From Candidatus Poribacteria bacterium (GTDB lineage: Bacteria > Poribacteria > WGA-4E > PCPOR2b), in NCBI GenBank assembly GCA_965208325.1, contig OZ242326.1, positions 2,944,001-3,008,000 of the forward strand: a DNA stretch of 64,000 bases. The letters are read 5' to 3'. The position numbers and the translations under genes are program-made. This document shows, piece by piece, positions 29,068 through 29,439 of the stretch. Under the pieces are notes generated by a model. It did no database searches, had not been told where the DNA came from, and saw only the letters and a list, made by a program, of their open reading frames with translations. Numbering within the stretch: position 1 is the stretch's first letter; every line of letters begins with the position of its first letter.

Positions 29068-29439
29068 TTAGTTCGTCGCTTCGGCGCTGAATCCTGCTTG
29101 TTTAACAGCGTCAGTAAGTTGTGCAACTGAGGCTTTACCTGTATCGCACTGAACTACCGCTTTACCTTCCGCTTGAGAAACATTGACACTAATCACGCCA
29201 GGTACTTGAGTAAGTGCAGACTGCACTTTGGCTACACAACCGCCTCACGTGAGTCCCGTAACCGCTAACGTGATTTCTTTAGCGGCAGCAGTCTCCATTG
29301 ATGGCTCTTCAGCCGCGGCATCCGCAGCCTCACTAGTCTGCTGTGATGTTTCGGGTGCCTGTTCCATCTTCTCCGATGCGCAGCCAATGACGAAAATCAT
29401 CGCCGCGCAACAGAGCAGAGCCAACTGTAATAAACGCAT
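29068..29439 (-). CDS. Heavy-metal-associated (HMA, CopZ/MerP-like) lipoprotein, selenoprotein with UxxC motif (TGA at 29245-29247)
   Basis: Read-through gives EITLAVTGLT-U-GGCVAKVQSALTQVPGVISVNVSQAEGKAVV..LTDAVKQAGFSA; lipobox VIGC. Confidence 0.85.
29212..29228 (-). promoter_or_regulatory. Bacterial SECIS-like hairpin
   Basis: AAGUGCA-GUC-UGCACUU beginning 17 nt 3' of the in-frame UGA. Confidence 0.65.

Follow-up and report, generated by a model that had tools for sequence, protein, structure and literature searches.

In a 64,000-nucleotide stretch of the genome of a Candidatus Poribacteria bacterium (assembly GCA_965208325.1, contig OZ242326.1, positions 2,944,001 to 3,008,000; hereafter, the window), a gene of 123 codons on the minus strand (29439..29068) contains one in-frame TGA at the position where the metal-binding motif of its HMA domain has its first Cys. 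We consider it very probable that the UGA at codon 65 is recoded to selenocysteine (Sec), and that the product is a genuine UxxC selenoprotein, exported and lipid-anchored, that binds soft metals outside the cytoplasm. With TGA translated as U, the readthrough product is MRLLQLALLCCAAMIFVIGCASEKMEQAPETSQQTSEAADAAAEEPSMETAAAKEITLAVTGLT-U-GGCVAKVQSALTQVPGVISVNVSQAEGKAVVQCDTGKASVAQLTDAVKQAGFSAEATN (123 residues, U being codon 65). The open reading frame (ORF) list made with translation table 11 splits the gene into a 64-residue piece (29245..29439) and a 52-residue piece that starts from an internal GTG (29068..29226). An earlier note on this DNA, which gave no strand, had the TGA standing where the HMA motif needs its first Cys, and both the translation and the Pfam search put it there. 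The gene is made up of the following parts.

29068..29439, minus strand: the whole candidate selenoprotein gene, as translated with TGA=U; the Pfam HMA match runs across the TGA, and the three genomic orthologs have the same architecture.
29245..29247, minus strand: proposed Sec codon TGA (codon 65), where GMxCxxC has its first Cys; the same column is TGA in the homologs L001, L002, and L003 and Cys in P0002 and P0066.
29070..29068, minus strand: stop codon TAA ending the 123-codon gene.
29380..29439, minus strand: predicted lipoprotein signal peptide MRLLQLALLCCAAMIFVIG-C with the lipobox V-I-G-C (residues 17-20), Cys20 being the predicted lipidated residue; read from the translation.
29284..29379, minus strand: disordered, acidic tether rich in A, E, T, S, and Q (residues 21-52); AlphaFold2 (AF2) confidence (pLDDT) below 50 at residues 19-28 and 30-49.
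29071..29283, minus strand: HMA domain (residues 53-123) of β-α-β-β-α-β fold; Pfam, AF2, Foldseek, and a dN/dS of 0.08-0.25.

The TGA is conserved among homologs

A scan of genome contigs, made with an alignment of the first matches as its query, gave 59 matched stretches, four of which passed tblastn. Full-protein homologs were present in three of them: L001 and L002 are complete chromosomes of Candidatus Poribacteria metagenome-assembled genomes (MAGs), and L003 is a MAG contig of an uncultured bacterium. The proteins are 96% (L001), 90% (L002), and 58% (L003) identical to that of the window, and in all three the TGA occupies the identical position of the motif, which reads GLT-U-GGC, GMT-U-GGC, or GMT-U-GAC. 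The fourth stretch, L004 of Mobilisporobacter, matched residues 2-51 only (39% identity); it was taken as a match of the signal peptide and linker and was excluded from the counts.

The protein databases hold the same gene mostly in pieces. A search among sequences of nearly the same length gave seven matches from 39 candidates, namely one Cys form, two W forms, and four fragments ending in TG[LM]T. The Cys form, P0002, has the motif GMTCGGC and is named 'copper chaperone CopZ' in its source. Among shorter sequences, all 18 candidates matched; 17 were N-terminal fragments that end exactly in [TS]G[LM]T, and the remaining one was a C-terminal fragment that begins at the internal GTG. Over these two length-restricted searches, 21 of the 25 database relatives stop exactly at the TGA position and two have W there. 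The fragments that bear a name in their source are called 'hypothetical protein'. An exhaustive search of representative sequences (8986 matches at E ≤ 0.001) yielded mostly multi-HMA proteins and ATPases, and the only close single-domain relative that it added is P0066, a Cys form (GMVCGAC) with a lipobox. U65 aligns with Cys in both P0002 and P0066 and forms a Sec/Cys pair with them. An alignment of Cys and TGA homologs was the check that the earlier note had proposed, and its outcome, TGA in three of three genomes and Cys in two protein relatives, is what a selenoprotein predicts.

W occupies the TGA position in three database clusters in all (P0003, P0004, and P0191), every one of them on contigs of at most 1275 bp. 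Because these contigs are short, and because the domain sequence of L003, the DNA of which has TGA, is identical to that of the W form P0004, we read the W forms as TGA translated under a TGA=W model, which the gene caller presumably picked on short contigs. Gene calls of this type can both disguise and reveal selenoprotein genes.

Coding constraint continues past the TGA

The 58 codons downstream of the TGA align without indels among the window gene and its orthologs in L001, L002, and L003; indels are confined to the tether, the length of which varies among homologs. Downstream of the TGA, dN/dS was 0.078 between the window and L002, 0.168 between the window and L003 (dS 1.27, dN 0.21), and 0.253 between L002 and L003. 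These values show that the reading frame is under purifying selection past the TGA. The recoding would be local, because TGA is an ordinary stop codon in 13 of the 32 Pfam-supported genes of the window (the others end in TAA, 15 genes, or TAG, 4 genes). When one of the TGA-ended genes, that of LpxB (40150-41742), was read through, the Pfam match finished before the TGA.

The product is predicted to be a lipid-tethered HMA protein

The first 20 residues comprise a basic n-region, a hydrophobic core, and the lipobox. The published pattern [LVI][ASTVI][GAS]C (PMC12462473) accommodates the V-I-G-C of the window protein, and the homologs that retain the N-terminus have VIGC, VMGC, MIGC, or VTGC. 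The protein is a predicted bacterial lipoprotein by this pattern, in keeping with the earlier note, and Cys20 would be the residue to which lipid is attached.

Beyond the tether, the claim that a complete HMA domain continues in frame to the TAA is borne out by three methods. With C in place of U, the Pfam HMA profile PF00403 matched residues 57-117 (E 5.7e-13; 49.5 bits against a cut-off of 24.8; profile positions 1-61 of 62), and the match crosses the TGA position without a break. The AF2 model, built with an 8-sequence alignment, had a mean pLDDT of 73.3; 10-residue blocks averaged 87-96 across residues 51-120, and the final three residues averaged 86. Its elements are strands at 53-61, 82-88, 93-99, and 118-121 and helices at 66-77 and 105-114, which places U65 in the β1-α1 loop and C68 in the first turn of α1, the canonical HMA metal site. 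The motif itself, G-L-T-U-G-G-C, would be a variant of GMxCxxC if U is inserted; its second Cys is invariant, and its first position is the TGA. In the Foldseek comparison with the Protein Data Bank (PDB), the first match was MerP of Ralstonia metallidurans (1osd; TM-target 0.93, rmsd 1.4, 38% identity), and a second MerP structure (1afi, 42% identity) was third, among CopZ proteins and metal-binding domains of ATPases. Among the solved structures listed in this comparison, the MerP identities are some of the highest, together with that of TTHA1718 (2roe, 41%). It gave 54 PDB matches at E ≤ 0.001, and among the matches listed, all are HMA domains or HMA-containing proteins. A sequence search of the PDB agreed. 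The NCBIfam scan gave 15 matches, all under their cut-offs.

A SECIS-like element follows the TGA

Two nested RNA structures lie at or near the TGA and could serve as a Sec insertion sequence (SECIS).

29212..29228, minus strand: apical hairpin of the proposed SECIS, with a 7-bp stem AAGUGCA/UGCACUU and the loop GUC; fits the constraints for bacterial SECIS (bSECIS) elements and resembles the fdhF SECIS.
29195..29250, minus strand: extended SECIS-like stem-loop of 20 predicted pairs, with the UGA within the lower stem; RNAalifold with 4 sequences.

The hairpin had been reported in the earlier note as starting at the 17th nucleotide after the TGA, and it is found there, at 29228..29212, with a gap of 16 nt between the TGA and the stem and a distance of 23 nt between the TGA and the loop. 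The bSECIS model, as summarized in a figure legend of a review (PMC13188914), specifies a loop of 3-9 nt, an upper stem of 4-16 bp, a UGA-loop distance of 16-37 nt, and a minimum free energy of −7.5 kcal/mol or lower; the loop has a G in its first two positions, mostly a G followed by G or U. The hairpin has a loop of 3 nt starting with G-U, a stem of 7 bp, and a spacing of 23 nt, all within the ranges, and so occupies the place expected for a bacterial SECIS, as had been proposed. Folds of 60 nt had energies of −13.2, −14.8, −22.7, and −19.4 kcal/mol for the four genes, and a 12-nt core of the hairpin, GUGCAGUCUGCA, is invariant in all of them. The extended stem-loop had an RNAalifold energy of −17.8 kcal/mol over the four sequences and shows compensatory changes at two pairs, UA to CG in L002 and L003 and AU to GC in L002. 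Of the 80 cells of the extended stem, 95% are paired, whereas sliding the 3' partners lowers this to 25-43%; the observed value was reached in 16 of 500 shuffles.

A likeness to the apical stem of the Escherichia coli fdhF SECIS had been noted from recall, and the likeness proved to be real when the E. coli K-12 DNA (NC_000913) was consulted: the apical sequence is UUGCA-GGUC-UGCAC in fdhF and GUGCA-GUC-UGCAC here. The two elements share the GCA/UGC closing pairs, the G-U of the loop, the flanking U-A and G-C pairs, and the location of the UGA within the lower stem of the extended fold. They differ in that the loop is GUC (3 nt) here and GGUC (4 nt) in fdhF, in that it begins 23 nt after the UGA here and 18 nt after it in fdhF, and in that the bulged U of fdhF is missing here. 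This bulged U contacts SelB in E. coli.

Sec machinery is recorded in other Poribacteria

Published tables allow the capacity for Sec insertion to be judged for the phylum. A study of sponge symbionts (PMC5649159) gives COG counts for SelA/SelB/SelD of 2/1/1 in bin70, 4/1/2 in bin44, and 2/1/1 in Ca. Poribacteria WGA-3G, bin70 and bin44 being Poribacteria according to its Table 2; that study also reports that SelA and SelB co-occur in most sponge-symbiont bins and are enriched in symbiont bins. In another study (PMC13582414), Supplementary Table 1 lists SelA, SelB, SelD, and tRNA-Sec for one Poribacteria MAG, and Poribacteria are given among the phyla with Sec-type group 4 hydrogenases. SelA, SelB, and SelD are therefore recorded for four of four Poribacteria genomes in these tables, which supports Sec use at the level of the phylum and not for this particular genome.

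Discussion

The results suggest the following scheme. SelB carrying Sec-tRNA(Sec) would be recruited at UGA-65 by the stem-loop 16 nt downstream, with its loop starting G-U, and selenocysteine would be inserted in place of termination. The 123-residue precursor would be exported, lipidated on Cys20, and cleaved, and the mature product would be a membrane-anchored periplasmic protein with an acidic disordered tether of about 30 residues and one HMA (ferredoxin-like) domain. The metal site would be the selenolate/thiolate pair U65-G-G-C68 in place of the usual CxxC. By analogy with MerP or CopZ, the protein would most likely serve to capture or buffer soft thiophilic metal ions in an extracytoplasmic location, and the likeness to these two proteins makes Hg(II) or Cu(I) our best guesses for the metal bound. 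Selenium may provide a ligand of low pKa that exchanges rapidly and the oxidation of which is reversible in the oxidising periplasm.

Several observations weigh against this scheme, and most of them concern the RNA element. The covariation in the extended stem is based on four sequences only. The bare hairpin has energies of −6.4, −6.4, −8.4, and −4.1 kcal/mol in the four genes; in the window (−6.4) and in L003 (−4.1) it is weaker than the −7.5 kcal/mol of the model. The four invariant codons of the hairpin could be a matter of chance (p ~0.08, from 21 of 40 identical synonymous codons between the window and L003). The fold of 81 nt has a z of −1.41, and 15 of 200 shuffles fold equally well. 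No Rfam family reached the gathering score in the whole window or the threshold in 29000-29500, where the only hits at E ≤ 10, a CRISPR repeat and isrG (both E ~9), are at the level of chance. The window contains 2202 TGA triplets, counting both strands. A hairpin that obeys the loop and spacing rules applied here and has a stem of 7 bp or more follows 75 of them (3.4%), and one no less stable than that of the gene follows 38 (1.7%); at these chance rates the hairpin by itself is weak evidence. The SECIS-like element thus fits the model and is conserved, yet its statistical support alone is modest and not compelling, and the strong part of the evidence is the conserved TGA inside a conserved domain. 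That part has limits of its own: the counts of database relatives are not fully independent, because some fragments share assemblies with L001 and L002, and the W-form clusters are represented by protein sequence, so that TGG is formally possible for them. As to the genomic setting, no selA, selB, selD, or tRNA-Sec was found within the 64-kb window or the three 20-kb loci L001-L003; ARAGORN gave no tRNA gene in any of these, and Pfam gave no SelA, SelB, or SelD among the 43 ORFs of the window and the 26 of the loci. No second selenoprotein candidate was found in the window, where 68 TGA-containing frames were listed and the 11 intergenic ones were scanned, and no Pfam family extends across a TGA; the sole Pfam match of the intergenic scan was LpxB itself, which finishes before its TGA. 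Lastly, in all four loci (the window and L001-L003) the genes next to it encode neither a metal transporter nor a reductase nor a MerR/CueR-type regulator, and for this reason the metal and the pathway are guesses.

One could envision that the TGA is a true stop and that the locus is either a decaying pseudogene or a gene for a 64-residue lipopeptide followed by a separately started 52-residue peptide. Public gene calls are exactly the pieces that a true stop would give, namely N-terminal fragments, of which there are 21, and C-terminal ones, P0025 and P0188 among them, but a true stop is highly unlikely in view of what lies beyond it: the stop has been kept at the same codon across a dS of 1.27, whereas the 58 codons downstream have stayed in frame with no indel and a dN/dS of 0.08-0.25, and conservation extends to the six codons that separate the TGA from the internal GTG, among them the codon for the second Cys of the motif. 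The internal GTG, moreover, has no Shine-Dalgarno sequence at a usable distance upstream, and in the AF2 model neither the 64- nor the 52-residue piece alone holds the complete HMA fold. The W residues in P0003, P0004, and P0191 might instead speak for a genome-wide reassignment of TGA to Trp or Gly (codes 4 or 25). This is scarcely credible for a genome in which 13 of 32 supported genes of the window end at TGA and the LpxB match stops short of its own TGA, and in any case the W forms are limited to the short contigs, while L003, which shares its domain with P0004, has TGA.

Another scenario accepts that the UGA is recoded through a SECIS and SelB but has Cys delivered by a tRNA(ReC)/SelC*-type tRNA, in which case the product is an ordinary CxxC HMA lipoprotein. 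Nothing in the content of the window separates Sec from Cys insertion, and one study (PMC13582414) describes tRNA(ReC)-like tRNAs beside the canonical tRNA-Sec in some Sec-using genomes and cites work in which UGA is recoded to Cys with SelB and a SECIS. According to the same source, however, such tRNAs are enriched in genomes with UXXU motifs and are rare, at about 2.3%, among other Sec-type genomes, and the Poribacteria MAG has tRNA-Sec alone under SelC(-like) in the 35 of 44 columns of the table that were covered. Furthermore, Cys could be had through TGC by one mutation, and yet TGA is kept in 21 of 25 database relatives and three of three genomes, which leaves Cys delivery a very improbable explanation. 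A selenoprotein is also retained if U-x-x-C is a redox centre, that is, if the protein is a selenol/thiol oxidoreductase or a selenium carrier and does not use the pair as a metal site. According to the review cited above, the majority of selenoproteins in prokaryotes have UxxC or CxxU motifs and are redox proteins (PMC13188914), and the lack of metal-handling neighbours in the four loci would be in line with such a role. Both the fold and the sequence are, on the other hand, those of an HMA domain, the nearest relatives of known structure, namely MerP, CopZ, and metal-binding domains of ATPases, without exception bind metals, and Sec-containing proteins associated with transporters are placed under heavy-metal resistance in that review (PMC13188914); we regard a redox role as improbable. 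If the preferred explanation, an exported metal-binding UxxC selenoprotein, is extended beyond this gene, then Poribacteria and at least one distant uncultured lineage would share a near-fixed Sec form of a lipid-tethered periplasmic HMA protein that serves as a selenium-dependent Hg/Cu scavenger without a mer or cop operon. We find this extension conceivable but rather doubtful.

Relation to known HMA proteins and selenoproteins

The highest-ranked fold match is MerP (TIGR02052), which, like the predicted product, consists of one exported HMA domain with the metal site at the β1-α1 loop. The protein described here scores 52.5 bits against an equivalog cut-off of 92.55 and lies outside that family; no merT, merA, or merR is nearby in any of the four loci; and, whereas MerP carries a cleaved type-I signal peptide, here there are a predicted lipoprotein signal peptide, a long tether, and the proposed Sec for the first Cys. 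Among CopZ-type chaperones, NF047957 (CopZ_AFE_1862) is the best NCBIfam match (62.2 bits), and the Cys form P0002 is itself named CopZ. The scores for NF047957, NF033794, and NF033795 are, however, under all cut-offs (85, 95, and 91, respectively), and CopZ is cytoplasmic, unlike a protein with the predicted export and lipidation signal. The second-best NCBIfam match, NF041115 (UxxU_metal_bind), is, according to a table of the review (PMC13188914), a family of metal-handling selenoproteins with Sec for a Cys of a CxxC-type motif; with 57 bits against a cut-off of 95 and a UxxC in place of UxxU, the protein is a non-member. It also differs from the Sec-containing ATPases and UxxU proteins in being a stand-alone predicted lipoprotein; it is neither part of an ATPase nor a protein of 74 residues that lacks a signal peptide. 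In the MerT_CopZ_Se fusion (NF045683), only the C-terminal HMA part was matched (positions 149-228 of 235), with 28.1 bits against 375.

As for lipid-anchored selenoproteins, the [NiFeSe] hydrogenase of Desulfovibrio vulgaris studied by Valente et al. in 2007 is reportedly lipid-anchored and Sec-containing, and SaoX-type substrate-binding lipoproteins are presented as selenoproteins in a preprint (bioRxiv 10.1101/2022.07.06.499078). Both resemble the protein proposed here in being exported, lipid-anchored, and Sec-containing; their folds and functions are unrelated to it, and neither is an HMA domain. Selenoproteins that handle metals have been listed as well. The selenoproteome table of the GOS survey (PMC2398784) has a 'Mercuric transport protein MerP' selenoprotein with two sequences and a UxxC 'Cation-transporting ATPase', and a table of the review (PMC13188914) includes the UxxU metal-binding protein NF041115, an ATPase, a putative mercuric transport protein, and others, and ties them to heavy-metal resistance. 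Our literature search, which covered few subscription journals and took in PMC2398784 and PMC13188914 without their supplements, found no description of an HMA selenoprotein from Poribacteria or of a lipoprotein HMA selenoprotein. The earlier note was right that HMA-type selenoproteins had been predicted before; in calling an extracytoplasmic, lipid-anchored Sec metal chaperone 'unusual' it somewhat overstated the matter, because MerP-type, UxxU, ATPase-HMA, and MerT/CopZ-fusion selenoproteins as well as lipoprotein selenoproteins are already catalogued. The gene is an additional, unannotated member of this catalogued HMA type, in a predicted exported, lipid-anchored UxxC form.

The small set of HMA-type selenoproteins would gain such a form, and a recurring error of public annotation would be corrected, namely the 60-70-residue fragments found in at least 21 sequence clusters, those of complete Poribacteria chromosomes included. 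A natural Se/S metal site with natural Cys counterparts would also permit selenolate and thiolate metal capture to be compared. No new principle is involved; Sec in proteins that handle heavy metals is an established theme, as the review makes plain (PMC13188914). The gene would also lend support to the idea of an investment of sponge symbionts in selenocysteine, given the enrichment of SelA and SelB in symbiont bins (PMC5649159). Should the doubtful extension set out above be true, this would be the first lipid-anchored selenoprotein metallochaperone and would tie selenium use to metal handling in the sponge holobiont. The SECIS-like element is so near the SECIS of fdhF that E. coli might express the gene as a selenoprotein without re-engineering.

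Gene signals and genomic neighbourhood

Two further signals lie upstream of the gene.

29449..29454, minus strand: Shine-Dalgarno sequence AGGAGG, 9 nt before the ATG; read from the sequence and invariant in the 4-sequence alignment.
29483..29512, minus strand: promoter-like TTGACA-18-TAGAAT, 11 of 12 matches to the consensus in a consensus scan; a pattern match only, with no evidence of function.

No intrinsic terminator was found 3' of the gene, which looks monocistronic. L001 shows collinearity with the window over 11.7 kb at 93.9% nucleotide identity, and L002 does so at 82-85%; the gene itself is the only part shared with L003 (68.6% nucleotide identity). The divergent neighbour in the window (29494-32076, plus strand) encodes an 860-residue multihaem cytochrome c with MtrC/MtrF-like and FixO/cbb3-type monohaem domains. 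It stands beside the gene in the window, L001, and L002 and not in L003, where the neighbours are an esterase-like (AXE1-like) protein and a PhyH-family protein. The idea that the two genes are functionally linked was dropped, as the L003 neighbour is unrelated to the cytochrome (best BLASTP E 3.5). In L003, a TPMT-family methyltransferase is encoded about 3.5 kb upstream of the ortholog (L003:5833-6444), which may be a coincidence; bacterial TPMTs methylate selenium and tellurium compounds.

Next to the gene lies a variable region scarred by mobile elements. Both the window and L001 have an integrase fragment there, and L002 has an insert bearing insertion sequences (IS). The integrase fragment is a truncated tyrosine recombinase (window 27167-27685, minus strand; L001:12016-12564) that matches positions 33-151 of 172 of the Phage_integrase profile only. 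It lies about 1.4 kb downstream of the gene, and the small ORFs adjoining it (27827-28225 and 28309-28590) have no family match. In L002, the counterpart of window 28282-29121, comprising the last ~54 nt of the HMA gene and its downstream region, occurs a second time at 18524-19362, with 83.7% identity. The two copies flank the insert of about 7 kb (L002:10825-18524), which encodes an FRG-domain/TPR protein and IS4/5-type DDE transposases.

Elsewhere in the window, a defence cluster at 55528-61452 begins with a type ISP restriction-modification enzyme of 1623 residues (Mrr_cat_2, ResIII, ISP coupler, and Type_ISP_C); next come a ThsB-TIR protein and a membrane protein of the 8xMP type. Paralogous large proteins with DUF6785 and DUF6784 (E ~1e-148 each) are encoded at 7906-9828 and 35649-37523, and L001 and L002 have retained the latter. 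HEAT-repeat proteins that show internal paralogy are encoded in a row at 19661-26402, with SUKH-1 and SprT-like matches between them, and segments of L001 match several places there at 67-84% identity.

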